A stretch of DNA of 64,000 nucleotides from positions 4,768,001 to 4,832,000 of the forward strand of contig OY760175.1 in NCBI GenBank assembly GCA_963663165.1. The letters are read 5' to 3'. The translations under genes were made by a program, and so were the position numbers. The notes under the pieces were generated by a model. It saw only the letters and a program-made list of their open reading frames with translations, did no database searches and was not told the origin of the DNA. This stretch comes from an uncultured Desulfospira sp. (lineage in GTDB: Bacteria > Desulfobacterota > Desulfobacteria > Desulfobacterales > Desulfobacteraceae). This document shows positions 41,026 through 60,287 of this stretch, piece after piece (position 1 is the first letter of the stretch; every line of letters begins with the position of its first letter).

Positions 41026-44000
41026 CTATGCCGGCTGAGCCTCCCAGGTGACCTTATGGTCGATCCGGTGTTCTTTATCCAGCCGGGCCAGTTTGACCAT
41101 CTGAAATTCGTTGATTTCAATGCAGACCTTGCCTGCTGAATCAGCCAGGGTCAGGTTATAGGTATTGGTTTCCTCTCCGGAGTCTATTTTCCGGGTGATG
41201 CAGTAATAAGGCGTGTTCTTTTCCGGTACACGGTAAAAATTCATCTCCTCAATTTTAAAGGGCAGCACGGTTCTGGAGGATGTCAGAAACTCCAGGAGTC
41301 CGCCGGTCTGGAACATGGCGTCCACCAGGACCGGTGAGGCCTGGAATTTGGGATTCTTCTCTCCTTTGAAAAATTCAGCCTCACTGCTGTCCTCAACCGT
41401 GGTGACCAGGGTGGTGCCGTCAAAGGAGTTGATATCCGTTATGGTGGCGAACAGCCCGAACATGAACAGCCGGTTGGGGTGGTAGACCAGGGAATCTAAA
41501 TCGCCCTCCCAGGACAGGGGAGAAAATGGCCCGATCTCAATGGTTTTTGAATCCGGCCGGGTTTCTGAAAATTCAAATACCCCCTGGTAATGAAGTTTGG
41601 GGTCCCCCATCACCTGTCCTTTGGGGTTTTTAAATACCGATTCTATCCGGCAGGCCACGGCCTGATCGTCTTTGAGGTCCGCCTGGATCATCAGTTCTTT
41701 GGGGCGGCCCTTGAGCAGCTTGATGCCGTAAGGGATATGAAAGTCCTTAAGCCTGGTGAGATGCTCCCGGCCGCCGGTTAGATTCCGGGCCGCCTCGGCC
41801 ATGGTCTCCACGCCGGTGGAGCCCAGGAACAGGGGCACATCCCCCATGGTATGGTCTTCAAGGAAAATGTCGCGGTTCAGGTCCAGGGTCCTGGCCCAGG
41901 CCTTGCTGTCCGGGGTATCTTTGATGGGGTCATCCAGAAAGGGGAATCCTCCGGGGTCTCCCAGGAGCCCGTCGATGTCAAACTCGTAATCCAGGCCGGA
42001 AAAAACCATTTCAGACTCTGTTCTGTCCAAAAGGTCGGCCATGAAGAATTTGACGCCCTGGTCCATGGGCAGGAATTTGATGCCCCGGTCTTCCAGGACC
42101 TTTTTCACCGTGGAATTGGTAGCCATGCCCACCCCGTCCCAGGCGGTCCAGGCATAGACCTTGTACGCCCTTTGAGGATGAAGCTGTTTTTGCCGCAACA
42201 GGGTTTTGCCCAGGAAATCGTTGGCCGCCGTATAATCGGCCTGGCCCTGGTTGCCGAACCGGGCCGTCACCGAGGAAAAGGTCAGAAAATACTTATAATC
42301 CTTTTCCTGGGCCGCCTTGAGCAGGTTCCGCATGCCTTTGATCTTGACATCCGTGACCAGCTCAAAGGACCAGAGCTCCTTTTTGGGGATAAACTGGCTC
42401 ATCTCCATGCCGGCGGCATGGAAGATCCCGTCGATTTCCGGGCAGGCATCCACGGCTTTTTTCACCGCCTCATAATCGGTGACATCGGTGCAGATGTATT
42501 CCACGCTGATCCCCTGGGACCTGAGATATTCCATATTGTCCACAGCGGTCCTGACCCGGTTGAGCCGGTCCAGGGCCCGCTTGATCTCAACGGGCTTTGA
42601 CTTTGGCATATCCTCCCTGAGCATGGCCATGAGCTCGGCACTGGTGGCCTGTTTGTCCAGGAATTTGGGGTCTGTGGCATAGATATCGTTGATATCCAGG
42701 ATCACCAGGTTGACCTTGTACTCCTGGACCACCTGTTTGATGATCTCATAGGTGATGCCGCCGGCCCCGCCGGTGACCAGGAGGGTGTCGTTGTCATTAA
42801 TGATTCTTTCAGTTTGATCCGGGGCACTGGTTTTCATGGACAATACATACCGCTGCAGGTCCTTGTACCCGGCCTCGCACCTTGGGTCATCAGACAACAG
42901 CTCATTGATGAACAGGTCGCTGATTTCAGTCTTGCTTTTCAAGGGGTGAGGGTAAGAAAAATCCACCACCTTGACCCGGGTATGTGCCATTTCCTTGTTC
43001 ACGGTTTTGAGCAGACCGGAAAGGCCCGCAAACATGGGATAGATGTCGTTGCATTCTTTCATATAGGGAAAGATGACCGAATCAAAGGCCATGGTGGCAA
43101 TGAGGGTGCCGGGCTTGTCCAAAACCTCATAAAGGGCCTGGATCAGGACAAAGGTGGATTTGATGGTGGTGTTCAGTTCCGGGTCTGATGCAAATTCATG
43201 GGTTTCCCGGTCAATATAGAAATCGAGGGGGGCCAGATGGATAAACCCGTCCAGATCCGGATGGCCGGACGCCAGTTCTTTTCCCACTAAGGCGGCGGCC
43301 CCAAGATCGGCAAAGGGCAGGGTCACATCCGGGTTCAGATCGGGATCACCCAGGGTGATTACTTCTCCCCCAAGGCGTTTGACCTGCTCGGCCACCACCT
43401 GTGCCATGCCGTGATGGTCAAGGGAAATCAGGATTTTCTTTTTCTTAAAATTCCGGCTTGACAGTTCGGGCAGGGCCGCCTCATTCACCCGGACCACCAG
43501 CCGTTTGATGGGAGAGGCGGGATCCGGAAGGGTATCGGTTTTGGCCGTCTTTTCATTGGCTGAGGGGGCAGGGCTCGGGCCCGATCCGGTTACCGGGATG
43601 GGCTCTTTACCGGAATGATCCGGTTCTGTGGCCCGGGACTCAATGTAGGCCGACAGCCGGGCAATGGTGTTCAACTCCCTGAGCTTAAGATCGTCGGGTA
43701 CATCAAATCCAAAATGGGTGGCCACTTTGCCGAAAATCTCCACCTGTTTGACCGTGTCAATGCCTAAGTCCGCTTCCAGATCCAGTCCCGGCTCCAGCAT
43801 GTCCACGGCATATCCGGTCTGGGCGGCAATAATTTCTTTTACCGTGTCCACAGGATCATTTCCCGGTACCGGGCCTGAGGTCTGGGGAATGGGTTCCGAA
43901 GCGACTGGGTTTTCCTGTGGCTCTGGTTTCGTTGCAGCTGTTCCCCCCCCGGTCCGGCTCACAATATAGTCGGACAGCCGGGCAATGGTGTTCAGGTCCC

Positions 44001-47000
44001 TGAGTTTGAGGTCATCCGGCACGTCAAACCCGAAACGGGTGGCCACTTTGCCGAAAATTTCCACTTGTTTAACCGTATCAATGCCAAGGTCTGCTTCCAG
44101 GTCCAGATCCGGTTCCAGCATGTCGACCGTATAACCGGTCTGTTCGGCAATCACGGCTTTGACGGTTTCCATGGGGCTTTCCAGGGTTTGAGGAGCCTGG
44201 GTATCCCGGGTTTCGAAAGATTCCGGCTCACGCTTTTCAGAAGGTGCTGCCATGGCAGGCCCAACCTTCTGGCTTACATAAGCGGCCAGCTTGTCAATGG
44301 TGTTCAGGTCTCGAAGCTTAAGGTCATCAGGCACGTCAAAGCCAAACCCTGAGGCAATGGTGCCGAAGATTTCCACCTGTTTGACCGTGTCGATCCCCAA
44401 GTCCGCTTCCAGATCCAGGTCGCCTTCCAGCATATCGGCGGCATACCCGGTCTGCCGGGCAATGATTTCCCGGATTCGTTCCACAGGATCGGGGCCTGTA
44501 ACCGGTTCTATCGATGCCGTTGCCGGTTCCACTGTTTGAATATCCGGTTCTTCAACCGGCACACTGTCATCGCCGGCCACCACGCACAGGGTATTGTCAA
44601 TGACCTTGAGTTCCGGGTGCGTTGAGCCCGTGATCTGCTTTAACCAGTTCTGATAGATCAGGTTGCCTTCCACCGGGTTTTCTTCCACCCGCTTGACAAA
44701 CATAAAGGCAAAATGGGAGCCGAACCCTGCAGACAGATGAAGCCCGTATTCGGCATTGATTTTTTCCCGGCCGGAAAAATTAAGGTTCCTGAACCGGTCC
44801 GGCACCTTTTGAAGGTTGGCAATGGGCGGGGCTTTTCGCTTCTGCAGGGCCTTGACCAGGACCACGTCTTCAATGGCTGCGCCTAAGGTGTGGCCGGTAA
44901 ACCCCTTGGTGTTGGAGATGCAGATGGTGTCCAGGTGGTCGGCAAAGGCTGATTCCAAGGCCGTGACCTCGGCATCGGCGGAGCCGCCCCGGGCCGGGGT
45001 ATAGGTTTCATGGGACATGAACAGCAGCTTGTCGGCATAATCCGTTTTGGTCAGGTTGTTCTGCTTCTCCACCTTGGCGATGAACTTGTTCATCTCCCGG
45101 GCCATGTGGGGCACATCAATGTTATAGGTATGATAGGCCGAGTTGGCGATATGGGTGCCCAGGATCTGGCACTGGCCGTTCATGCCGCGCTTGGCTGCGC
45201 ATTTTTCATCTTCAATGACCAGGCCCACGGCCCCGGCCCCCAGGATGGTGCCGTTCCGGTCCTCGTCAAAGGGTTTGGCCGCTTCAGACACCCGTTTTTT
45301 AATGGTGGCGGCGCCCAGGGCCAGAAAGCCTGAACCCACCCACTGGGCCTGGCGCGGGGAAGTGGCGTTCTCGCCGCCCACCACCAGAACCCGTTTGCAC
45401 CGGCCCACCCGGATCCAGTCCTCGGCAATGCCCATGGCCAGGGTGGTGGAGGCACAGGCTGAAGAGACCAGGGTGTTGGGCCCTTTGGCCTTGATGATCT
45501 GGGCTAAATGGGCCGAGCCTAAGGGGCAGGCATTGGCCAGGAAATTCCGGTCAAATTTATAGGTGGTAAAATCCGTTCTTTTCCGGGCCTTGGCCTTGAA
45601 AAACCATTCGGTAATCTCTTCTTTGACATTAAGATCGTTCACCTTTTCCATGAGGAAATAATAGATCTTTTCAAACTCCTCATAGGGTTTGAGGAACAGT
45701 TTTTCATAAAAGTATTTTTCAAGTTCGGCCATAAGGGTTTCGCCGTTGGGCCACAGGGAGGTGATGATCACCCCGGTTTCCTCCTGCATTTCCTCGGGCA
45801 GGGCAAACCCGTCCGGGATCAGGGCTTTGCCGTCTTTCATTTTTTTATACTGCATGACCAGGGGGATGTTGGCATCTTTAAGGGCCTCAATGCCTGCGGC
45901 AATGCCCAAGGACATGGCAATGTCATACTCTTCTTTGATCCCGTATTCATCGGTCAGGTTAAAGTATCCGAGCTGGCCGGCCAGATGGATCACGTCTTCT
46001 GTCTTGGTAATCTGGACAAACCGGGCATTGCCGTCGGGTTCTTTGAACAGCTTGGTAATGTTCTTGTCCGTGATCCTGGCCTGGTCTTCCTGGGACAGGG
46101 ATTCAATAAAATTTTTGCCGTTGAGAATGGCGTCAAAGTTGTCCTTGGCAAAGACGTGCCGGGCCTTTCCGGGAAGCCCTACGGATACCCCTGAAATCAA
46201 GATGCGCCGGGTGTTGAAATCGTACCGTTTGATGGCGTCAATGGCGGCATCCCGTTTCTTGCGCTGAAATTCTTTGTACAGGATTTTGTCAATCAGGCTC
46301 TGGTTGTCCTGTTTAAAGGATTCAAAATCTTCTGAAATGTCGGCCCCGGCCATATCGGCAAATGACAGCTCGTTGCTGACGTTTGCCTGTTCCGGTTCAT
46401 CCGGAAAAGGGTCAACGCCTGGCCGGTCAGGAATCTCTCGGACCGGCCGGGATTTGAACAGGGCGTTCAGGGAGATCAGGTACTGGCGGCAGGCTTCAAA
46501 GGATTCGACCTCGCCTTTTTTGGGGTCCACGGACACGGTGGTGCCGTATTCGCCGATATTGATATACTTGAGCAGGTTGACCAGGAGCCTGGACGGCCCG
46601 ATTTCAATAAAATGGGTTTTGCCCGAGGCATACACATGTTCAATGGACTTGATAAACTCCACCGGCGAGACAATCTGCCGGGCCAGCAGGTCCTTGATTT
46701 CGGTCACCTGTTTGGGATAGGGGGCGGCCAGGGTATTGGAGATGATTCTGCCGTATCCGGCCCGTTTAAAGGTTAAGGTATCCAGGTACTGGCGAAGCTT
46801 TTCCGACGCATCGGCCAGCAGCGGGGTATGGAAGGCCCCGGTGAGGTTAAGCTTCTTGAACATCACCTTTTCTTCTTTCAGGAAGTCGCAGAATTTTTCA
46901 ATGCTTTGGGCCTTTCCCGATACAGCGGTCTGTTTTTCACTGTTTTTATTGGTGATATAGATATCCGATACAAAGGATTTTCGGATCAGTTTTTCGGTTT

Positions 47001-50000
47001 TCTTTTCATTTTCAAAGACCACCATGATTTTGCCGGGCACTTTTAAGGTGGATTCATGCATGAGATCAGATCGTTTAATAACCAGGCGCATGGCATCCTC
47101 AAATCCCAGGATGCCCGAGCAGAAAAGGGCGGTATATTCCCCCACACTGTGGCCGATAAAATAATCCGGAGAAAACCCTTCAAGGGCCAGGCGGCTGCAA
47201 ACGGCGGCCGATGACAGGAATACCGCGGCCTGGGTATTCTGAGTGGAATTTAAGGACTCATCTTCTCCAAACATCAGATCCAGGAGGGAATAGCCCCGCT
47301 GTTCTTTGAAGATGGCCTCACCTTTTTCCATGACCTCCCGGATATGGGCGTCTGATTCAAACAGGGTCTTCATCATGCCCGGATGCTGGGCGCCCTGGCC
47401 GGAGAGCAGGGCCACGATGCGCTGCTTTTTGCCCCCGGGGCCGGCAGACCAGGCCGTGTCTGAAAGGACCCGGTCATCTTCGGGAACTGCCGTAAAGGAA
47501 ACATCCACTACATTATCCACTTTGTGTTGTTCCGGGACCAGGCGGGCCGGCAAGGCTCCCATGATCAAATGGGCATGGTTGCCGCCAATGCCGTTGACGT
47601 TGCTGGCAAACCGCAGGGGCCGGCCCGGTCTGGCATTGGTGAGTTCAAGGGCGGGTTTCAGGATGGCGCACTCTTTGATAATGGAGTGTTCCCGCTCAAA
47701 GTTAAAGTCCGGCAGGATTTTCCCCTTGGCATTCATGAGCATGAGCTTGGCCATGGCCACGGCCGGGTTGGCCGCCTTGAAATATCCGAACTGGGGCTTG
47801 ACGTTGCCGCAGTGCATGGGATGGGAAAAGCAGGCCTGGGTGACCTGTTTTTCAATCATGTCCCCGAAGATATTGGAGAACGCGAACAGATCCAGGTGGT
47901 CCACTTCAGATTTTCGGATGCCGCTTCGCCTGTAGGCCTGGTTGATGGCCGACACAAAGGTGTGTTCCGACGGGGCCAGCAGGTGATCCGGCACCGAAGA
48001 TTTGACCGCACACTCGTTGATTTCCCCCAGGATTTTCATGCCGGATTCGGTGGCCTTTTTATAGGTGGTCAGCACATGAATGGCCGCCCCTTCGCCCATG
48101 ACATACCCGTCTGCCCGGTCGTCAAAAAAGTTGCAGTCCCCGGATGAGAGCAGGCCTAAGCGTTTAAAGGCCATGAGAACCGCCGGATACAGGTTGCAGT
48201 CCACGCCCCCGGCCAGGCAGAAGTCCATGTTTTTTTGTTTTAAGTCCCTGGCCGCATTCCGGATGGCAATCACGGCCGAGGCGCAGGAGGCGTCCACCAC
48301 GTAGTTGGCCCCGTTCAGGCCAAAGTAATTGGTGATCCGGCCCGAGATGATATTGGACAACAGTCCCGGGGTGGTGTCTTCGTTGTTTTCGGGGATGGTG
48401 GACCGGATAACATCTACCAGCTGCCCGGCCACTTTATCCAGAACAGCGTCATCCACATCGGCGGTCTGTTTAATGATGTTGGCCAGCATCAGCTTTCTGA
48501 CCCTTAAGATGTTTTTGCTCTGCCGCTCCCCCGGTATGGTCCCGAGGATCACCCCGGTCCGGGCGGCGGCCTGTTCCTGTTTCAGCAGTCCTGATGATTC
48601 CAGGGCCTCGGAGGCGGCGGTCAGGCCGAACAGCTGGCCCCGTTCAACGGATTTGACCATGGTGGGGGGCATCCGGTATTTCAGGTTGTTGAACTGAAAG
48701 TCTTTGACAATCCCGGCTTTCAGGTGGGGCAGATGGTAATGGGATTTTTTATCCAGCCGGCTGTAGGCGTCATTGTCAAAGTGTTCACCCGGGATCTGAG
48801 ACAGCTGCTTTTCTCCGGATACCAGCTTTTCCCAGAATTCTTCGCTGTTTTTTGCGCCGGGTAGAAACACCCCTAAACCGGCCACAACAATCCGGTCGTC
48901 GTTAAAATCATAAGACAGGTCCCTGAAAAAATCCCGGGGCACTGGAACGTAGGACGGGGTCATCTCTTCTAAAGCCACGTGGTAGTTGATTCCCCCGAAC
49001 CCATAGGAAGACACGGCCGCTTTCCGGGATTGGCCGTCCCGGGGTTCCCAGGGCTGCTGATCTTTAACAATATAAAGGGAGGACCCGGACAGGTCATGGC
49101 TTGAAGACAGGGTTTCAAAATTTCCATTGGGGGGCAGCACCCCTTTTTGGACGGCCAGCAGGGCCTTGAGCAGGCCCGCCGACCCGGCACACCCGAGCAG
49201 ATGGCCGATCTGGGATTTAATGGAAGAGACCCCGGCCCTGGCCCCGGTGTATCCGGCGGTCAGGGTTTCAAGCTCGGCCTGGTCCCCGATAATGGTAGCG
49301 GTGCCGTGGGCCTCAATGAATTCAATCTGATCGGGGTGAAAGCCTTTTCTGGTGTTCTCATAGCAGCGCTGGATACTTAAAAGCTGCCCCTTGGGATTCG
49401 GGGCCGCAATGGCCTTGCCCTTGCCGTCGGAACTGGACCCGATGCCGTTGATGATGCCGAAAATCTGGTTGTTATCCCTGAGGGCATCTTTCATCCGTTT
49501 GAGGACGAACACCACCGACCCTTCGCCGAGAACAAACCCGTCGGCCCGCTGGTCAAAGGGATGTGATCCCGTGGCGGACAGGGTCCCCATTTTGGCAAAC
49601 CCAATAAAGGATTCCGGTGCCAGGTGGGTGTTGACCCCGCCCACGATGACCTGGTCAACTTCCCCTGACAGCAGCTCTCCGGCCGCCGCATCCAGGGCCG
49701 TGATTGATGAGGCGCAGGCCGCATCCACAATATAATTGACACCTCTGATGCCCAGATGCCGGGCAATCCTGGAGGCTTCAATGTTCAGCAACATGCCGTG
49801 AACCGGGTCATACCCCTTGTTTTCGCCTTCGATCCCATCCAGAAGGGCCTGGTTGATTTTTTCTTTTTCTTCGGGGTCAAGGGCCTGATAAGCCTCGGTC
49901 TTTTCCAGCATGGAAACCAGTTGAGGATACCAGTACTTGAGCTGAAGGTCATTGCCCAGTTCATTGGACAGGCAGGTGGCAATGATGACGGAGGTCCGGG

Positions 50001-52434
50001 AGGGGTCATCACAGGAAAGCTGGTCGTTCTCATTTAAAAGCCCGGCACTTTCCACGGCTTTGTAGGCGGTTTGAAGCACCATTTTCTGGCTTCTGGACAG
50101 TTTGTTTTCTTTATCCTCATCGTATCCGAACCGCTTTGCGTCAAACTGGAAATCTTCTATAATCCCGGCCAGGCGGGTATAGGTTCTGTCTTCGGCCGAC
50201 TTGTCGCCGGACAGGTACAGATCGGCGTTAAACCGGGATTCAGGCATCTCTTTGATGGCATAGGTTTTATTTAGAATATTGTCCCAGAGCTGATCCGGGG
50301 TCTGGGCGCCCGGCAGGGTACATCCAACCCCCACCACGGCAATTTCATCGTTGATCCGGTTTCTCGGGCTTGAAAATACCTCCAGTTGGTTAAGGTTTTC
50401 CCGCAGCCGGTGTTTGAACTGAAACATCATGGTATGGATATCTTTAATGGCGGTGACATCCTTGAAAAAGGCTAAGCTGTCCCCCACCAGAAAATTTCCT
50501 TTTTCCCGGTGTTCTGGCCCCTCATACCAGGTATAATGTTCCTCTCCGGGGTTTTTAAAGTCAGGCAAAAACCCTTTGGCCCCGATGAGCAGGGAGCCGA
50601 TGTTTCTTTTTTCAAAGGATTTTTTACGTTGATCCAGGGGTTTTTTCTCCCGGATCATGGCGGCCTCATGTTCCATCATCATTTTGGCAAACCCGGTGGG
50701 GGCGGTCCTTGAGGCAAGGCCTAAGGTTTTGCCGATGACAACGGTTTCGTTCTTTTCAATGACAATGTCCTGGTAGAGTTTCTGGATGCTCTTTGTATCG
50801 ACAATTTCTTTTGTGAACAGGTAGGCGGTCCCGGCCTGAATACCGATTTTAGCGCCTTTGGCCGCCAGAAAAGCGGTCAGTCCTGAAATAAAAAACGACG
50901 CAAAACAGGTGGAAATTCCGCCGGCAAACACCAGATAAATATCGGACAGGTTCCGTTCCGAGTTAACCAGCCTTGAGATGGCCGCTTCCCACAGCACCAT
51001 GGAGGAAAGGCTTCCCACATGGCCCCCGGCCTCGGCCCCTTCAAAGATAAACCTGCGGCAGCCGTTTTCCAGAGCATTGGCCATCATGGACACCGAAGGC
51101 GTGTGCAGGTAAGTCTTTGTCCCGGCCTTTTCAAGTTCGAGCACCTGGGAGGGAACTCCCCCGGCAAACAGGGCATAAGGCACCTTGTACTGTTTGACCA
51201 TGTCCAGATGGATGTTGACCTGGGGGTTAAAGGCCTCGATGCCCACCAGGCCCGCCCCGAAATTGTCTAAAGTCTGGGCCCCTTTTTTAAGCATGTCATC
51301 GGCGAGATCCTTTGGCAGGCTGCCCACGGCAAAAAACGGCAGGGCGCCCTGTTCCAGGACCTTTGAGGCAAATTGTGCGTTGTCCGTGATGTTGGCCATG
51401 GGACCTTGAATTAAGGGCAGGCGGGTGTTCTGATCTGCTGCAAAATTTGAATCCGGAACAATGGGATCAAACTGATCAATAAAGTTGAGGTTGTCGCCGA
51501 TGGTCGTAAAAAAAGAGTGGATCATCTGGCTCAGGTCTTTGGATTCCCTGGCAAAATCCTTGGCAAAGACCGCGTCCTGGCCCAGGTAAAATAAAGACTG
51601 GATAAACGCTGCATCCGGGTCATCCAGGGCGGTCATTTTTTCAGATAACAGATCGTACAGCCCGGAAAGGCCGTCAGGATTTTCGGCCAGGAGAACCGCC
51701 TCCTGTTTCAAGTCTTTTACGATTTTGGTCCCCAGCTTGGCAAACACCCGGAACCGTTCCTGGTCTTCAAAGCTGATTTCCGTGGAATCGCCTTCATCCA
51801 GGGATTCCAGAAGGGCTTTAAAATTTTCAGACACCGGGGCCTGGTCGGAAAGCAGCACCTGGGAATCCATGACAAATCCGGATACGCCGGCAGCCAGCAT
51901 GCCGGCCCCGGTATATTTGCCTACCCCGCCGTGGATAAATACGGGCAGGGACATCTGTTTTAAGTACCATTGCATGAGGATAAAGGATGAATACCGGGAC
52001 ACGTTTCCGGCCGCCTCATTTCCTTTCAGAATGAGGCCGGACGGGTCGGCCTTAAGGATCTCATCTGTCAGATCAATATCTTTGATTTCAAGAATAAGCC
52101 GGGTATCCCCAAAATTTGAAAACGCCTGGGCCATATCTTCTGCCTGGGCCTGTTTTGAAAAGGGAACCACCATCAGGTCCAGGTTGTTCAGATTTTTATT
52201 TTTGATAGCGGCAATCAGGGTTTCATCCCACCGGGACAGCCGGACACCAAAGCAAAAGGTCTCTTTGGACAACAGCAGTACCTTATGCAGGATATCATCC
52301 CGGCTTAAAAATTCGGTATCAAATACGGGCAGTGCCCCTGACGCATAGACGGAGTGAAAATACCGGATATCAAACACCTTGACCGGTGTGTAAATCATAA
52401 GGGGGAGTTTTGAGTTCAGTATTCTTGTAATCAT
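41026..52434 (-). CDS. Giant single-polypeptide type I PKS/FAS (Pfa-like secondary lipid synthase), ~3802 aa: FabK-like x2, KS, degenerate KS, AT, KS, ACP x3, KR, DH
   Basis: EGAEAGGHVG; DAACASS/EAHGT/GHLL; DASCASA without His motifs; GQGAQ/GHSVG/GAFH; SACAST/SHET/GHTL; three LGIDTVKQ; TGGAGGI/GQADY; DHTMG/DAMFQ. ATG 52434 follows GGAG. Confidence 0.9.
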   Translation of the reverse strand: MITRILNSKLPLMIYTPVKVFDIRYFHSVYASGALPVFDTEFLSRDDILHKVLLLSKETFCFGVRLSRWDETLIAAIKNKNLNNLDLMVVPFSKQAQAEDMAQAFSNFGDTRLILEIKDIDLTDEILKADPSGLILKGNEAAGNVSRYSSFILMQWYLKQMSLPVFIHGGVGKYTGAGMLAAGVSGFVMDSQVLLSDQAPVSENFKALLESLDEGDSTEISFEDQERFRVFAKLGTKIVKDLKQEAVLLAENPDGLSGLYDLLSEKMTALDDPDAAFIQSLFYLGQDAVFAKDFARESKDLSQMIHSFFTTIGDNLNFIDQFDPIVPDSNFAADQNTRLPLIQGPMANITDNAQFASKVLEQGALPFFAVGSLPKDLADDMLKKGAQTLDNFGAGLVGIEAFNPQVNIHLDMVKQYKVPYALFAGGVPSQVLELEKAGTKTYLHTPSVSMMANALENGCRRFIFEGAEAGGHVGSLSSMVLWEAAISRLVNSERNLSDIYLVFAGGISTCFASFFISGLTAFLAAKGAKIGIQAGTAYLFTKEIVDTKSIQKLYQDIVIEKNETVVIGKTLGLASRTAPTGFAKMMMEHEAAMIREKKPLDQRKKSFEKRNIGSLLIGAKGFLPDFKNPGEEHYTWYEGPEHREKGNFLVGDSLAFFKDVTAIKDIHTMMFQFKHRLRENLNQLEVFSSPRNRINDEIAVVGVGCTLPGAQTPDQLWDNILNKTYAIKEMPESRFNADLYLSGDKSAEDRTYTRLAGIIEDFQFDAKRFGYDEDKENKLSRSQKMVLQTAYKAVESAGLLNENDQLSCDDPSRTSVIIATCLSNELGNDLQLKYWYPQLVSMLEKTEAYQALDPEEKEKINQALLDGIEGENKGYDPVHGMLLNIEASRIARHLGIRGVNYIVDAACASSITALDAAAGELLSGEVDQVIVGGVNTHLAPESFIGFAKMGTLSATGSHPFDQRADGFVLGEGSVVFVLKRMKDALRDNNQIFGIINGIGSSSDGKGKAIAAPNPKGQLLSIQRCYENTRKGFHPDQIEFIEAHGTATIIGDQAELETLTAGYTGARAGVSSIKSQIGHLLGCAGSAGLLKALLAVQKGVLPPNGNFETLSSSHDLSGSSLYIVKDQQPWEPRDGQSRKAAVSSYGFGGINYHVALEEMTPSYVPVPRDFFRDLSYDFNDDRIVVAGLGVFLPGAKNSEEFWEKLVSGEKQLSQIPGEHFDNDAYSRLDKKSHYHLPHLKAGIVKDFQFNNLKYRMPPTMVKSVERGQLFGLTAASEALESSGLLKQEQAAARTGVILGTIPGERQSKNILRVRKLMLANIIKQTADVDDAVLDKVAGQLVDVIRSTIPENNEDTTPGLLSNIISGRITNYFGLNGANYVVDASCASAVIAIRNAARDLKQKNMDFCLAGGVDCNLYPAVLMAFKRLGLLSSGDCNFFDDRADGYVMGEGAAIHVLTTYKKATESGMKILGEINECAVKSSVPDHLLAPSEHTFVSAINQAYRRSGIRKSEVDHLDLFAFSNIFGDMIEKQVTQACFSHPMHCGNVKPQFGYFKAANPAVAMAKLMLMNAKGKILPDFNFEREHSIIKECAILKPALELTNARPGRPLRFASNVNGIGGNHAHLIMGALPARLVPEQHKVDNVVDVSFTAVPEDDRVLSDTAWSAGPGGKKQRIVALLSGQGAQHPGMMKTLFESDAHIREVMEKGEAIFKEQRGYSLLDLMFGEDESLNSTQNTQAAVFLSSAAVCSRLALEGFSPDYFIGHSVGEYTALFCSGILGFEDAMRLVIKRSDLMHESTLKVPGKIMVVFENEKKTEKLIRKSFVSDIYITNKNSEKQTAVSGKAQSIEKFCDFLKEEKVMFKKLNLTGAFHTPLLADASEKLRQYLDTLTFKRAGYGRIISNTLAAPYPKQVTEIKDLLARQIVSPVEFIKSIEHVYASGKTHFIEIGPSRLLVNLLKYINIGEYGTTVSVDPKKGEVESFEACRQYLISLNALFKSRPVREIPDRPGVDPFPDEPEQANVSNELSFADMAGADISEDFESFKQDNQSLIDKILYKEFQRKKRDAAIDAIKRYDFNTRRILISGVSVGLPGKARHVFAKDNFDAILNGKNFIESLSQEDQARITDKNITKLFKEPDGNARFVQITKTEDVIHLAGQLGYFNLTDEYGIKEEYDIAMSLGIAAGIEALKDANIPLVMQYKKMKDGKALIPDGFALPEEMQEETGVIITSLWPNGETLMAELEKYFYEKLFLKPYEEFEKIYYFLMEKVNDLNVKEEITEWFFKAKARKRTDFTTYKFDRNFLANACPLGSAHLAQIIKAKGPNTLVSSACASTTLAMGIAEDWIRVGRCKRVLVVGGENATSPRQAQWVGSGFLALGAATIKKRVSEAAKPFDEDRNGTILGAGAVGLVIEDEKCAAKRGMNGQCQILGTHIANSAYHTYNIDVPHMAREMNKFIAKVEKQNNLTKTDYADKLLFMSHETYTPARGGSADAEVTALESAFADHLDTICISNTKGFTGHTLGAAIEDVVLVKALQKRKAPPIANLQKVPDRFRNLNFSGREKINAEYGLHLSAGFGSHFAFMFVKRVEENPVEGNLIYQNWLKQITGSTHPELKVIDNTLCVVAGDDSVPVEEPDIQTVEPATASIEPVTGPDPVERIREIIARQTGYAADMLEGDLDLEADLGIDTVKQVEIFGTIASGFGFDVPDDLKLRDLNTIDKLAAYVSQKVGPAMAAPSEKREPESFETRDTQAPQTLESPMETVKAVIAEQTGYTVDMLEPDLDLEADLGIDTVKQVEIFGKVATRFGFDVPDDLKLRDLNTIARLSDYIVSRTGGGTAATKPEPQENPVASEPIPQTSGPVPGNDPVDTVKEIIAAQTGYAVDMLEPGLDLEADLGIDTVKQVEIFGKVATHFGFDVPDDLKLRELNTIARLSAYIESRATEPDHSGKEPIPVTGSGPSPAPSANEKTAKTDTLPDPASPIKRLVVRVNEAALPELSSRNFKKKKILISLDHHGMAQVVAEQVKRLGGEVITLGDPDLNPDVTLPFADLGAAALVGKELASGHPDLDGFIHLAPLDFYIDRETHEFASDPELNTTIKSTFVLIQALYEVLDKPGTLIATMAFDSVIFPYMKECNDIYPMFAGLSGLLKTVNKEMAHTRVKVVDFSYPHPLKSKTEISDLFINELLSDDPRCEAGYKDLQRYVLSMKTSAPDQTERIINDNDTLLVTGGAGGITYEIIKQVVQEYKVNLVILDINDIYATDPKFLDKQATSAELMAMLREDMPKSKPVEIKRALDRLNRVRTAVDNMEYLRSQGISVEYICTDVTDYEAVKKAVDACPEIDGIFHAAGMEMSQFIPKKELWSFELVTDVKIKGMRNLLKAAQEKDYKYFLTFSSVTARFGNQGQADYTAANDFLGKTLLRQKQLHPQRAYKVYAWTAWDGVGMATNSTVKKVLEDRGIKFLPMDQGVKFFMADLLDRTESEMVFSGLDYEFDIDGLLGDPGGFPFLDDPIKDTPDSKAWARTLDLNRDIFLEDHTMGDVPLFLGSTGVETMAEAARNLTGGREHLTRLKDFHIPYGIKLLKGRPKELMIQADLKDDQAVACRIESVFKNPKGQVMGDPKLHYQGVFEFSETRPDSKTIEIGPFSPLSWEGDLDSLVYHPNRLFMFGLFATITDINSFDGTTLVTTVEDSSEAEFFKGEKNPKFQASPVLVDAMFQTGGLLEFLTSSRTVLPFKIEEMNFYRVPEKNTPYYCITRKIDSGEETNTYNLTLADSAGKVCIEINEFQMVKLARLDKEHRIDHKVTWEAQPA

Positions 52435-52492
52435 GTAAACGTCTCCAAATGGTTTTGGGTTCAGGTCTTGTGACCTCAATTCCCTTTTGGCT

Positions 52493-52537
52493 ATCAAGGA
52501 ACGTGCCAGAGGCGGTGTGTTTTATAACCAGTTGATA
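52493..52537 (-). promoter_or_regulatory. Sigma-54-type promoter plus IHF site for the megasynthase
   Basis: CTGGCACGTTCCTTGAT (52509-52493; -12 element is GA, not GC) and TATCAACTGGTTA (52537-52525), an exact WATCAA-N4-TTR match. Confidence 0.6.
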
Positions 52538-52631: not shown

Positions 52632-52740
52632 TTGGCTTTTGGCTCTTAGCAATTAGCAATTAGCTTTTAGCTGCTTGCAGTTGGCTAACAGCTAACAGCT
52701 AACGGCTAACGGCTAACAGCTAACAGCCAACAGCCAACAA
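52632..52740. repeat. Inverted heptamer tandem repeats (ttagcnn)n / (rgctaac)n
   Basis: About 6 left units and 8 right units; a second copy lies at 58499-58570. Confidence 0.8.
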
Positions 52741-52751
52741 AGGAAAATTTA

Positions 52752-54224
52752 ATGGCAAAATTCAGTCTGGATTCAGAAGAAAAGATATTTTTCAGGACGG
52801 TTTATCATGCGGCCTTTGCTAATCCTTTCAGTGAGTTAAGGGAAAAGCTGGACCGGAAAATTGCCGGCCTTTTTCCCTCCAACAACCCCAAACAGATCAC
52901 CGACATGTGTATCCGGGAGGTAGACCAGCGCTTAAGAAAGCTGGAGTCCCAGGGCCGGGGAGACCTTAGGCGGTATTCAGAAAAAGACCAGGAAACCCTT
53001 CGTGTGGTCTATTTGTTTGATATCTTTCATAAGTTCAGGGATGATTTTGACCGGCTTATCAATGACCAGATCAAAGCAGGCGATGCCCCGGTAAAAGTGG
53101 ACTTTGCCCAAAACGCCCGGCAGATGCTCATGGACCGTGGGTTTACGACCGAACAGTTCAGGCATTATTTTGCCCTGTCCTTTCAGCTCAGGCGGGCATT
53201 TTACTTTATTTCCCAGACCCTGGTAGGGGAAAGCCCCTGCATGCGGAATTTAAAAAAACACCTCTGGTACAATGTCTTTACCTGCAACATGCTCTTATAC
53301 GACCAGCAGCTTTGGAACCGGATGGAGGACTTTTCCACCCTGCTCTTGGGCGAAACCGGCACCGGAAAAGGAACCGCCGCCAGAGCAATCGGCCGAAGCG
53401 GGTTTATCCCCTTTGACGAAAAAAAGTCCAGTTTCACCCAGAGCTTCACCCAGGCCTTTTCTTCGCTCAACCTGTCTCAATACCCTGAAACCTTGCTGGA
53501 ATCTGAGCTTTTCGGCCACACAAAAGGCTCGTTTACCGGGGCGGTGGACGACTATAAAGGGGTGTTTGCCCTGTGCAGTCCCCACGGGTCAATCCTCTTA
53601 GACGAAATTGGCGAAATCCCCAACCATGTCCAGATCAAGCTGTTGCGGGTCCTTCAGGAAAGAAGCTTTTCGCCGGTGGGGGCCCACACGTCCTACCGGT
53701 TCCAGGGCCGGGTCATTGCCGCCACCAACCGGCCCAGAAAAGATATCATGTCCGGTAAGGTGTTCCGGGATGATTTTTACTACCGGCTCTGTTCAGACAT
53801 CATTGAAGTGCCTCCCTTGGCCGCCCGGATCAAAGAAAAGCCATCGGAACTGGACGATCTTCTGGAATTCACTATTTTCCGTATGACCGGCGTAAAATCA
53901 GAAGAAATATTGGTTAAAGTCAAAAGAATTATTGACCGTAATCTGGGAAAAGACTATCAATGGCCTGGGAACGTCAGGGAGCTGGAACAATGCGTTAGAA
54001 GCATTCTGCTCAGACGAAGTTACAGGGGAAAGGAAAGTTCCGGGACCCGGGAATTTTCCCTGGACCGGATTTTGGCCCGGGGTATCGAAGACCGGACCAT
54101 CGGCGTGCCGGATCTGGTCTCCGGATACTGCAGGCTCCTGTATGACACCCATGGCACCTATGAAAAAGTAGCCCGGGTAACGGGCCTGGACAGGCGGACA
54201 GTAAAAAAATATATTTTAGGATAG
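52752..54224 (+). CDS. Sigma-54-dependent enhancer-binding activator with an unrecognised N-terminal domain
   Basis: GETGTGKG, ESELFGHTKGSFTGA, LLDEIGE, IAATN, FRDDFYYRL, WPGNVREL, C-terminal HTH. Confidence 0.92.
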   Translation: MAKFSLDSEEKIFFRTVYHAAFANPFSELREKLDRKIAGLFPSNNPKQITDMCIREVDQRLRKLESQGRGDLRRYSEKDQETLRVVYLFDIFHKFRDDFDRLINDQIKAGDAPVKVDFAQNARQMLMDRGFTTEQFRHYFALSFQLRRAFYFISQTLVGESPCMRNLKKHLWYNVFTCNMLLYDQQLWNRMEDFSTLLLGETGTGKGTAARAIGRSGFIPFDEKKSSFTQSFTQAFSSLNLSQYPETLLESELFGHTKGSFTGAVDDYKGVFALCSPHGSILLDEIGEIPNHVQIKLLRVLQERSFSPVGAHTSYRFQGRVIAATNRPRKDIMSGKVFRDDFYYRLCSDIIEVPPLAARIKEKPSELDDLLEFTIFRMTGVKSEEILVKVKRIIDRNLGKDYQWPGNVRELEQCVRSILLRRSYRGKESSGTREFSLDRILARGIEDRTIGVPDLVSGYCRLLYDTHGTYEKVARVTGLDRRTVKKYILG

Positions 54225-54228
54225 ACTC

Positions 54229-55122
54229 ATGTTTTTCTTTCTTCCCCCCCTCATCAGAGGTTGTGCTTCCATTATTATTTATTTTTTGAACACCCTTGTT
54301 CTGACCGTCCCGTTGATCCTGTGTTCTCTTTTAAAATTTATCATTCCGGCTCATGGGTTCGTTGTCTGGATGGATAAATTTCTGATCGGTATTGCCACCC
54401 TCTGGATCGGCATCAATTCAAAAACCACGGACCTTTTCTGCAAAATTCACTGGGACGTCCACGGGCTTGAAAATTTAAAGAAAAAGGAATGGTACCTGGT
54501 GTTGTCCAACCACCAGTCCTGGGTGGATATTCTGGTGCTTCAAAAAATTTTGAACCGGAAAATCCCCATGCTCAAATTTTTCTTAAAAAAAGAACTGATC
54601 TGGGTTCCGTTCCTGGGGCTTGCCTGGTGGGCCCTGGATTTTCCCTTTATGAAACGGTATTCAAAATCTTTTCTGGCCAAACATCCCCACCTTAAGGGAA
54701 AAGACCTGGAAAGCACCAAAAAAGCCTGTCAAAAATTCAAGCATACCCCGGTGTCCATCATGAACTTTGTTGAGGGAACACGGTTTTCTCCCGACAAACA
54801 ACAGGCCCAGAGGGCCGAGTTCAACCACCTGCTCAAGCCCAGGGCCGGGGGAATCGCCTTTGTTTTGGCCTCCATGGGCGACTACCTTCACAAGATCATT
54901 GATGTGACCATTGTCTATCCGGAAAAAGTCCCGAGTTTCTGGGAGTTCATTTCAGGAAAAACCCGGCGCATCGTGGTTTACTTCAACGTGCTGGACGTGA
55001 CCCGGACCCTGAAGGGGGATTATTTTAACGACCCTGAATTCAAACAGGGCTTCTGCGAGTGGCTCAACGAGATGTGGCAGGAAAAAGACCGGAAAATATC
55101 CGGTCTTATTGCCGGGGGATGA
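54229..55122 (+). CDS. YihG/PlsC-family 1-acyl-sn-glycerol-3-phosphate acyltransferase
   Basis: NHQSWVD, KFFLKKEL, WWALDFPFMKR, FVEGTRF, LLKPRAGG. Confidence 0.88.
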   Translation: MFFFLPPLIRGCASIIIYFLNTLVLTVPLILCSLLKFIIPAHGFVVWMDKFLIGIATLWIGINSKTTDLFCKIHWDVHGLENLKKKEWYLVLSNHQSWVDILVLQKILNRKIPMLKFFLKKELIWVPFLGLAWWALDFPFMKRYSKSFLAKHPHLKGKDLESTKKACQKFKHTPVSIMNFVEGTRFSPDKQQAQRAEFNHLLKPRAGGIAFVLASMGDYLHKIIDVTIVYPEKVPSFWEFISGKTRRIVVYFNVLDVTRTLKGDYFNDPEFKQGFCEWLNEMWQEKDRKISGLIAGG

Positions 55123-58571: not shown

Positions 58572-60287
58572 CTAGATGATTGCGGCCAGTACCCCTGCGG
58601 CAAGAAACGAGGCCTCAATGAGAAATTCGTACTGGCCCCCGGATAAAAATTTTTTCTTTTGGGATATCCTTATCAGTAAAATCATAAAAAGGGGAATCAA
58701 CGCAAGCAAAAAAGCCGCCCCCGGCAGTATATGTAACATACTGCCCAGGGTCATGAGAAGGATATCCAGTATCAACACCCCGAAAATCAGGTTAAAACTT
58801 TTTTCTTCACCCAGCAGAATGGGCAGTGTTTCCCTGCCGCTGATCCGGTCGCCCTGTATGGCCAGGATGTCAAAAAAAGCGGCCCTTGAAAATGCAAGCC
58901 CCGTGGAAAATAGAAAAGCGGCCGGCAGCACCAGAAGCTTTCCCCCGTGGGCAACGGCCGGCAGAATACTGGTCACAACACCCCAGGCAAGCGCAATTAA
59001 AATGGTCTTGGAGCCGGGAATGTCCCTGATCCGGCTTTTCTTTTTATTCCAGAACATTAAAAGGGAAATTTTGGCCTTATTGTAGGCCAGCCCGAGAAGG
59101 GTCATGAGCAGCAGGATAAAAAAGGATAAAATCCCGGTGGAATAGGCCACATAAAGTCCGGCCCCACCGGTACAAAGGGCCATGGCCCTTAGGAAAAAAA
59201 GGTTTTTTCTGTAGAATTCCGCCCGACCTGGATTATTATATGTATCTGATTTTATGGTAAATATATTATTTAATACCTGCATGGACAACACATACAGCAT
59301 GGCGATCACCGAGTGCTTAAGGGAATGGGAAAAGCCCTGAATGGCCGAGCAGGCATAGGTCAGGCTCGCGGCCCCGGCCGCTAACAGCAGGTTGGTTTTG
59401 ATTAAAAAATCCCTTGCCTGGGCAAGTGCCCCTAAAACCGGCTTTCTTTTTTGAAAGGCATTTTCAATCTGAACGCAGGTACAGGTAATGATCCAGTTAG
59501 GGGTTGAGGCGCCGGCGGTAACCGCGATGGATTTGGCTTCGGCCAGCATGTTAAAATCCAGTTCTGCGGCATCCTCGATATGGACGGCCCGTGTGCCGGT
59601 TTCGGTGGCCACCTGGGCAAGCCGTTTGGTGTTGCCGCTTTGCCGGCCGCCCACAACGATGATGGCATCATTCTTTTGGGCCAGATCCCGGACCTCGCTC
59701 TGCCGTTTTTCCGTGGACCCGCAGATGGTATCAAAGATTTCATAATGGGGGGCGTGGGTCTTGCACCAGTCCTTGATCTGCTGGAAAAAAGCGGTGTTCT
59801 GGGTGGTCTGGGCCACCACCACGGCTTTTTCATATTTTGGCAGGGCTTCAAGTTGTGCCAGGGATGTGACAGGCCGGCCATTTGGCCCGGCATACCCGAG
59901 AAGGCCGATGACTTCCGGGTGTTTTTCGTCCCCCACGATAATGGCGCTGTACCCTTTTTTGGCATGGGTTTCCAGGATGACCTGAACCCGGATCACCCGG
60001 GGGCAGGTGGCGTTCAGAACGGTGAACCCGGCCTGTTTGAGGGCCTTTTGATCTTCTGGCGGGACCCCGTGGGCCCGGATCAGGACAATTCCCCGGCCTT
60101 TTTCCGGAATGGTGGAGATCTGGTGAATTCCTTTTCCCTCAAGCATTTCCAGGACCTGGGGGTTGTGGATCAGGGGGCCGTATGTAAAAATAGGGCCTTC
60201 AAACGAGTTGGACGCATCCAGAACCATGTCAACGGCCCTGCGGACCCCCATGCAGAACCCGGCCGTTTTTGCAATGGTGATTTTCAT
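58572..60287 (-). CDS. ispH: 4-hydroxy-3-methylbut-2-enyl diphosphate reductase fused to a UbiA-like membrane domain
   Basis: AGFCMGVRRA, LIHN, RAHG, ATCP, HPE, QTT, TIC, SGNT, TAGASTP; then ~290 aa with multiple TM helices and DILAIQGD. Confidence 0.92.
   Translation of the reverse strand: MKITIAKTAGFCMGVRRAVDMVLDASNSFEGPIFTYGPLIHNPQVLEMLEGKGIHQISTIPEKGRGIVLIRAHGVPPEDQKALKQAGFTVLNATCPRVIRVQVILETHAKKGYSAIIVGDEKHPEVIGLLGYAGPNGRPVTSLAQLEALPKYEKAVVVAQTTQNTAFFQQIKDWCKTHAPHYEIFDTICGSTEKRQSEVRDLAQKNDAIIVVGGRQSGNTKRLAQVATETGTRAVHIEDAAELDFNMLAEAKSIAVTAGASTPNWIITCTCVQIENAFQKRKPVLGALAQARDFLIKTNLLLAAGAASLTYACSAIQGFSHSLKHSVIAMLYVLSMQVLNNIFTIKSDTYNNPGRAEFYRKNLFFLRAMALCTGGAGLYVAYSTGILSFFILLLMTLLGLAYNKAKISLLMFWNKKKSRIRDIPGSKTILIALAWGVVTSILPAVAHGGKLLVLPAAFLFSTGLAFSRAAFFDILAIQGDRISGRETLPILLGEEKSFNLIFGVLILDILLMTLGSMLHILPGAAFLLALIPLFMILLIRISQKKKFLSGGQYEFLIEASFLAAGVLAAII

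Follow-up and report, generated by a model that had tools for sequence, protein, structure and literature searches.

The closest described relatives of the gene considered here are the Type S and Type R lipid synthases catalogued by Shulse and Allen (2011; PMC3098273). Desulfobacterium autotrophicum HRM2 carries a Type S synthase (YP_002604438) with the domain order ER-KS-CLF-AT-KS-ACP3-KR (enoyl reductase, ketosynthase, chain length factor, acyltransferase, ketosynthase, three acyl carrier protein domains, and ketoreductase), and the lack of fabA and fabZ led to the suggestion that Type S may be the core fatty acid synthase. The HRM2 synthase is given there without a dehydratase (DH) or a product, and the words "serine" and "threonine" are absent from the main text of that paper. 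Attachment of phosphopantetheine to Ser is treated as a rule, and work on E. coli ACP has used an S36T change as its dead control (PMC3340395). The subject here is a gene of the same general kind in an uncultured Desulfospira sp., within a window of 64,000 nt (the whole stretch of DNA analyzed; contig OY760175.1, positions 4,768,001 to 4,832,000), whose three carrier domains all have Thr at the acceptor position. Carriers without Ser are usually called inactive. The reading favored here, with good confidence, is that these domains bear phosphopantetheine on Thr and that the enzyme is probably the main fatty acid synthase (FAS). The lipid synthase family was already catalogued in 2011; what appears to be new is the Thr acceptor position.

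The Type S-like iterative lipid synthase is encoded by an open reading frame (ORF) on the reverse strand (41026..52497), identified by Pfam and ORF reading, with 3,823 aa counted from TTG; the likely start is an ATG at 52434, preceded by GGAG, which gives 3,802 aa. The three carrier domains share DLEADLGIDTVKQVEIF, with GIDTVKQ placing Thr where ACPs carry Ser. They lie, on the same strand as the rest of the gene, at approximately residues 2668-2744 (44266..44496), 2772-2848 (43954..44184), and 2879-2955 (43633..43863), with Thr2704, Thr2808, and Thr2915 encoded by ACG at 44388-44386, 44076-44074, and 43755-43753, respectively. Synonymous codons around the three ACG triplets vary from copy to copy. 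These observations agree with the preliminary description, as does the lack of any other ACP motif of the GxDS form: the sole other such string in the synthase is GDDS (residues 2642-2645), in the linker ahead of the first carrier domain. In sequence alignments, the Thr lines up with the Ser of solved ACPs, and in an AlphaFold2 model of copy 2 (74 sequences, pLDDT 93), which has an ACP fold with a TM score of about 0.8 against ACP structures, it is the first position of helix II. Of the features that define an ACP (PF00550), the fold and the profile match are thus present, while helix II begins with Thr rather than Ser in all three copies. A misaligned motif with a Ser elsewhere in the domain was considered and is ruled out by the alignment to solved ACPs and the copy 2 model. 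Sequencing error, also discounted in the preliminary description, is ruled out by the codon context, the Thr in homologues described below, and contigs from public sequencing runs (X1, X2, X3) that are identical to the stretch over long pieces, X1 and X2 being from one sample that may be its source.

Residues 2660-2960 were used as a query, yielding 5,703 homologous proteins out of 8,000 candidates scored. In the best 120 of the 5,703, a set that leans toward the Thr query and has three to eight carrier copies per protein, Thr is present in 552 of 556 carrier domains and Ser in the other four; 116 proteins are Thr-only. The preliminary description had named Ser in close homologues as the mark of a strain-specific change. 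Such a change is ruled out by these counts and by the presence of the synthase in 110 of 112 genomes of the family. A wider sample, the best 150 of the representatives at 50% identity, contains 636 domains, with Thr in 404, Ser in 228, Ala and Gly in one each, and gaps in two. The Ala and Gly exceptions sit in degenerate extra carrier copies, and the Ser domains are mostly of the PfaA kind (DSIKRVE). Ser-only proteins in this sample (n=43) include many fragments, and one has a KS3 immediately before the carriers, like the present synthase. The hydroxyl residue is thus nearly without exception (Thr or Ser in 632/634), which supports a working carrier. The acidic residues at -1 and +5 of ACPs serve partner recognition; among the 404 Thr domains, Asp is found at -1 in all and Glu at +5 in 375. 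Val is at +1 in 396 and Gln at +3 in 403, positions that in the Ser domains are mostly taken by Ile and Arg, and the smaller +1 residue may give space for the extra methyl group of Thr.

A search for the motif across homologues, as proposed in the preliminary description, placed it in many bacterial phyla and in Asgard archaea. Scanning genome contigs for the exact motif gave at least 124 stretches, 80 of them with names; having been chosen on Thr, they are informative for breadth only. The named matches include Desulfobacterota, Acidobacteriota, Chloroflexota, Actinomycetota, Elusimicrobiota, Myxococcota, Gemmatimonadota, Rhodothermales, and Heimdallarchaeota. Among the matches listed, each of the four Thr codons occurs (ACC 162, ACG 135, ACT 22, ACA 18), with codons differing between copies in 35 of the 124. 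Twelve further metagenome loci, found via a Heimdallarchaeota domain, have Thr in each motif detected. The placement of the carriers varies in some family members: in P0154, P0222, P0230, P0245, P0250, L065, and L031 the first carrier domain stands earlier, either ahead of the AT or of KS3 or at the N-terminus.

A quick tree of KS1 sequences (60 rows, midpoint root) groups the PfaA-type Ser proteins together (support 99), separate from a group of Thr proteins (support 85); the latter also includes P0251, a Ser protein with another architecture whose position the tree does not resolve. The KS1 of the present synthase groups with Desulfobacterales homologues (support 100). An all-Ser protein from Heimdallarchaeota (P0161), with the order KS1-AT-KS3-ACP5-KR-DH and a fused 4'-phosphopantetheinyl transferase (PPTase), branches with Thr proteins (support 98), and a Heimdallarchaeum aukensis protein with Ser, Thr, and Ser in its carriers is likewise nested among them. 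The simplest reading of the P0161 sequence would be a reversion to Ser within a Thr family. With the same machine built using either residue, the position most likely has the same job in both.

The rest of the protein looks intact. The layout is ER-like, ER, KS1, KS2 (CLF-like), AT, KS3, three ACPs, KR, and DH, and Pfam matches comprise NMO, three KS, one AT, exactly three PP-binding stretches, KR, and a polyketide synthase (PKS)-type DH. Two NMO/FabK-like barrels (50398..52434) begin the chain. The second has the Pfam NMO match and a GGH motif (His493), while the first resembles the second weakly (23% over 164 aa, E 4e-4) and is without the GGH His. KS1 (48958..50349; Cys928/His1064/Lys1094/His1099) and KS3 (44698..46110; Cys2348/His2496/Lys2531/His2536) have all catalytic residues. 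KS2 (47548..48879) retains Cys1405, with Phe1538 and Tyr1572 in the two His positions; since both His are gone though the Cys remains, it is CLF-like and probably non-condensing. The AT (46528..47406) has Ser1784 (GHSVG), Arg1809, and His1890 in GAFH, which we take to be a malonyl-type motif. The KR (42139..42786) has TGGAGG, Ser3409, and Tyr3422, and the PKS-type double-hotdog DH (41029..41943) has His3549 and Asp3726. Among homologues aligning at each site, catalytic residues are near-invariant (KS1 Cys 113/113, AT Ser 116/116, KS3 Cys 118/118, KR Tyr 113/113, DH His 111/111). Gene decay, which the preliminary description had argued against, is ruled out by the presence of the KS1, AT, KS3, KR, and DH residues here and their retention in homologues.

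Four fused PPTases and the PPTase of this genome went into a profile with which 78 distinct loci were scanned. Matches were found in 54, and in 39 of the 51 loci with at least 9 kb beyond the last carrier; seven are fused to the synthase. Pfam confirmed the assignment for the five free and two fused PPTases submitted. Among 264 proteins, 22 have a fused PPTase, 20 of these with Thr-only carrier motifs; [WF]xxKExxxK is present in all 22 fused PPTases and GxDx[EM] in 19. The present genome has one PPTase match, at C1:1839345, about 3 Mb from the synthase, and none within the window (Pfam). In a quick tree it groups (support 100) with PPTases adjoining Thr synthases in three Desulfobacterales loci. 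As the sole PPTase found, it would be expected to act on the Ser carriers of this genome as well (AcpP, the PfaA-like system, and a nonribosomal peptide synthetase, NRPS), so that an enzyme tolerating both Ser and Thr seems likelier than a Thr-only one.

When this PPTase was modeled together with ACP2, CoA, and Mg, the score was 0.87, compared with 0.18 for the best of three controls, with at least 96% of contacts agreeing between runs and a partner pLDDT of at least 90; 116 of 157 solved complexes pass the mark applied, as do two of 215 mismatched pairs. ACP residues 36-38 (Asp-Thr-Val) and Glu150, Trp184, and Glu188 of the PPTase all fall within the modeled interface. Because like complexes have been solved (2cg5, 4mrt), the score may reflect likeness only, and it does not distinguish Thr from Ser.

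The gene content of the genome (one contig, 6.74 Mb, 96.68% complete) bears on the role of the synthase. Profile searches of it found no free FabD, FabF/B, FabZ/A, or PlsX; its four PF07977 matches are all within two Pfa-like ORFs, leaving the host without fabA/fabZ. The wider family was sampled in 112 genomes at least 90% complete, which are kin and hence not independent, by counting Thr carrier, FabZ, FabD, AcpP, and PfaA-like KS matches. The Thr carrier synthase is in 110 of them, while FabZ is over the cut-off in none (with 11 weaker matches) and FabD in ten. It is rather probable that the synthase is the main FAS of this organism and family, replacing the missing type II FAS. Acetyl-CoA carboxylase genes are present in 41 of the 78 synthase loci and an acyl-CoA dehydrogenase gene in 39, some with alpha and beta subunits of electron transfer flavoprotein (ETF). 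The dehydrogenase lies upstream of synthases without an ER (e.g., L025:16085-19324), for which it may provide the enoyl reductase step.

Combining this gene context and these gene absences with the sequence, its conservation, and the fold model, we infer the modification, the product, and the role as follows. The Sfp-type PPTase that accompanies this synthase family would move 4'-phosphopantetheine from CoA onto the hydroxyl of the Thr that opens helix II; malonyl units would then be loaded by the AT; KS1 and KS3 would carry out condensation; and the KR, DH, and NMO/FabK-like ER would perform the reduction, all steps being in cis and repeated. It is likely, on this evidence, that the synthase is iterative and fully reducing, with its arm on Thr. 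One guess at why Thr is so strictly retained, even though Ser ought to serve, is that it insulates the carriers from AcpS-type or hydrolyzing enzymes.

Several observations weigh against this reading. The homologue sets are biased toward the Thr query. The E. coli ACP S36T variant is described as unmodified and non-functional (PMC3340395), a result that concerns AcpS-dependent E. coli and not the Sfp-type PPTase found here. The preliminary description proposed looking for a co-occurring PPTase subtype. PPTase matches, adjoining or fused to the synthase, occur in 54 of the 78 loci; no single Thr-specific clade or signature was found: in a quick tree of 74 rows, with support below 80 on 34 of 71 inner branches and few Ser-only comparators, the Thr-linked PPTases do not form one clade, and with the same few comparators no PPTase residue marking Thr specificity was found. 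This genome encodes a free AcpP with Ser (C1:6633572-6633820), as do 111 of the 112 family genomes; an AcpP match is also found in 45 of the 50 diverse genomes that carry the synthase. Free ACP-like genes are also present in G040 and G043, two of the carrier-poor genomes discussed below, which are all drafts.

Other points bear on the proposed role rather than on the carriers. A PfaA-like KS is present in 104 of the 112 family genomes, and the present genome has a Ser-ACP Pfa-like system at two distant loci (C1:461365-469167 and C1:814559-820838). With a Ser-ACP PfaA-like synthase present, the Thr synthase is not the sole possible source of fatty acyl chains. The genes after the second Pfa-like gene (C1:814559) are presumably oleA- and oleB-like; such neighbors would point the second system to hydrocarbons. 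Among the 50 diverse carriers, FabF is over the cut-off in 24 and FabZ in 19, so a main-FAS role is not general, and the synthase there often stands beside type II synthesis. Four Elusimicrobiota drafts (G001, G019, G036, G039) have FabZ-like and AcpP matches with no FabF match at E 1e-90 in any; the Thr synthase may be the elongating enzyme in those four.

The alternative that survives best, though unlikely, is that the Thr domains are unmodified scaffolds or decoys, with the chain carried in trans by the free Ser AcpP and the linked PPTase serving AcpP. The wide retention of AcpP suits it, particularly in this genome, where AcpP is kept though fabD, fabF, fabZ, and plsX were not found, and so does the unmodified S36T protein of E. 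coli (PMC3340395). However, lipid A synthesis can explain why AcpP is retained: LpxA (C1:767345-768888) and an LpxD-like neighbor are present here despite the missing type II genes. Something must charge the AcpP used for lipid A, and the Thr synthase might conceivably do so. A decoy would need no hydroxyl, yet nearly every aligned domain has one, and 20 Thr-only proteins have PPTases fused to them. In the draft genomes G029, G038, and G044 no other carrier was found, every PP-binding match being inside the Thr synthase, and the archaeal drafts G038 and G044 have no PPTase matches other than those fused to it; with G040 and G043, these are five of the 50 genomes, picked for low carrier counts, and drafts of unstated completeness. 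Among the motif-scan loci, a free ACP was seen in one neighborhood alone (L083).

It is distinctly improbable that the enzyme instead works on CoA thioesters, with the repeats being structural and the Thr that begins helix II serving for capping or binding. In its favor, helices are commonly N-capped by Ser as well as by Thr, the acyl-CoA dehydrogenase genes of the 39 loci (some with ETF) point to CoA-linked chemistry nearby, and PlsX was not found in this genome. This reading would leave unexplained why PPTases whose catalytic motifs are intact are linked or fused to the synthase; moreover, the number of carrier copies varies from three to eight, as in true tandem-ACP synthases, and Asp(-1) and Glu(+5) are kept. 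Another prosthetic group or modification on the Thr, or an acyl chain in direct oxygen-ester linkage, fits the strict need for a hydroxyl and has nothing direct in its favor; it seems more improbable still, since the enzyme linked to the synthase is a PPTase of the Sfp type whose motifs are intact, and KS Cys-His-His chemistry requires thioesters. Least credible of all is that Ser is the functional residue through recoding or low-level misincorporation at Thr codons: threonyl-tRNA synthetase can mischarge Ser upon editing failure and all three codons here are ACG, but all four Thr codons occur in a set that spans many phyla as well as archaea, copies mix codons in the 35 matches noted above, and a single-base change would yield Ser directly. 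The preliminary description had left two options, phosphopantetheine on Thr and a trans ACP or CoA; the genomic evidence favors the first over the second, short of proof and with the free AcpP remaining.

In its widest form, the proposal is of a clade of single-chain FAS enzymes with O-phosphopantetheinyl-threonine installed by Thr-accepting PPTases, serving as the main fatty acid route in this sulfate-reducer family and in some Elusimicrobiota, Chloroflexota, and Actinomycetota, and as part of a full ACP-dependent pathway (fused PPTase, acetyl-CoA carboxylase, biotin ligase) in some Asgard and other archaea, where Thr may shield the carriers from AcpS-type enzymes and make a natural orthogonal pair. 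Taken as a whole, this has about an even chance of being right. At three archaeal loci, L076:950-16210 and L089:726-16680 (Heimdallarchaeota) and L037:1-13597, a synthase with fused PPTase adjoins a carboxyltransferase gene. L076 and L089 add a biotin carboxylase, biotin carrier, biotin ligase, and alpha/beta hydrolase (Pfam on L076 neighbors), and apparently encode a complete ACP-dependent fatty acid pathway; a literature search found no paper on such a pathway in archaea. The Thermoplasmatota protein P0160 has the same build of synthase and fused PPTase.

Within the window, a sigma-54-like -24/-12 element (52494..52508, reverse strand), which we take to match the sigma-54 consensus, is found upstream of the synthase; a similar element is present in six of six Desulfobacterales loci examined. 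Facing it is a divergent sigma-54 activator gene (52752-54224, forward strand) with relatives in five loci, and between the two, at about 52670-52740, are short tandem repeats with 8-base units. Directly behind the activator is a gene for a YihG-family 1-acylglycerol-3-phosphate acyltransferase (NF058536, over cut-off; 54229-55122, forward strand), a lipid context. Farther away are a DruA-domain ORF (PF14236; 25961-28291, forward strand), followed by a 466-aa ORF without a Pfam match, and a 571-aa ORF (58572-60287, reverse strand) in which a LytB (IspH) domain is fused with a UbiA prenyltransferase-like domain.

A literature search, in which the motif string itself was not searched and subscription journals were mostly outside, found no report of Thr as a phosphopantetheine acceptor; in the portions of text covered, mentions of "threonine" in PMC11744666 and PMC8007912 are unrelated, and PMC4882568 does not use the word. 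A natural Thr-linked system in many phyla, if true, would break the Ser rule and alter the annotation of such domains. The Thr carrier and PPTase pair, if true, might be orthogonal for labeling or pathway engineering. The proposal also makes testable how a sulfate-reducer family mostly without type II fatty acid genes makes its lipids.

PPTases target the Ser of the GxDS motif, and both Sfp and human AASDHPPT modify Ser. The linked PPTase matches Sfp (4mrt, E 2e-9) and AASDHPPT (2cg5, E 4e-5) and keeps GxDxE and WxxKE, although the acceptor here would be Thr rather than Ser. PfaA (TIGR02813) has tandem ACPs of the same subfamily (LGIDSIKRVEI compared with LGIDTVKQVEI here) and related KS1, AT, and KR domains, but its carriers have Ser and it has a FabA-type DH, whereas the present synthase is a single polypeptide without that domain (PS-DH only), scores 858.9 against TIGR02813, below the cut-off of 1010.1, and falls in a separate KS1 group. 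Type R synthases (Solibacter, Koribacter, Elusimicrobium, Roseiflexus; PMC3098273) have the order KS-AT-KS-ACPn-KR with adjoining PPTase and carboxylase genes. They are without ER or KS2 in the chain, often with an adjoining acyl-CoA dehydrogenase, while the present synthase has both ER and KS2, and the domain labeled CLF in Type R has the Cys and both His in the homologues checked. Loci with the Type R order from Acidobacteriota, Elusimicrobiota, and Chloroflexota share the Thr motif seen here, a comparison at the level of phyla and not of the named strains. The closest likeness is to Type S of HRM2, compared by its published description, which shares the single-chain ER-KS-CLF-AT-KS-ACP3-KR order and a host without fabA/fabZ; its PPTase adjoins the synthase, an arrangement described as found "most often" (PMC3098273), whereas here it is about 3 Mb away. 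Going by the homologues, the Thr acceptor position appears to be shared across the family of catalogued Type R and Type S lipid synthases.

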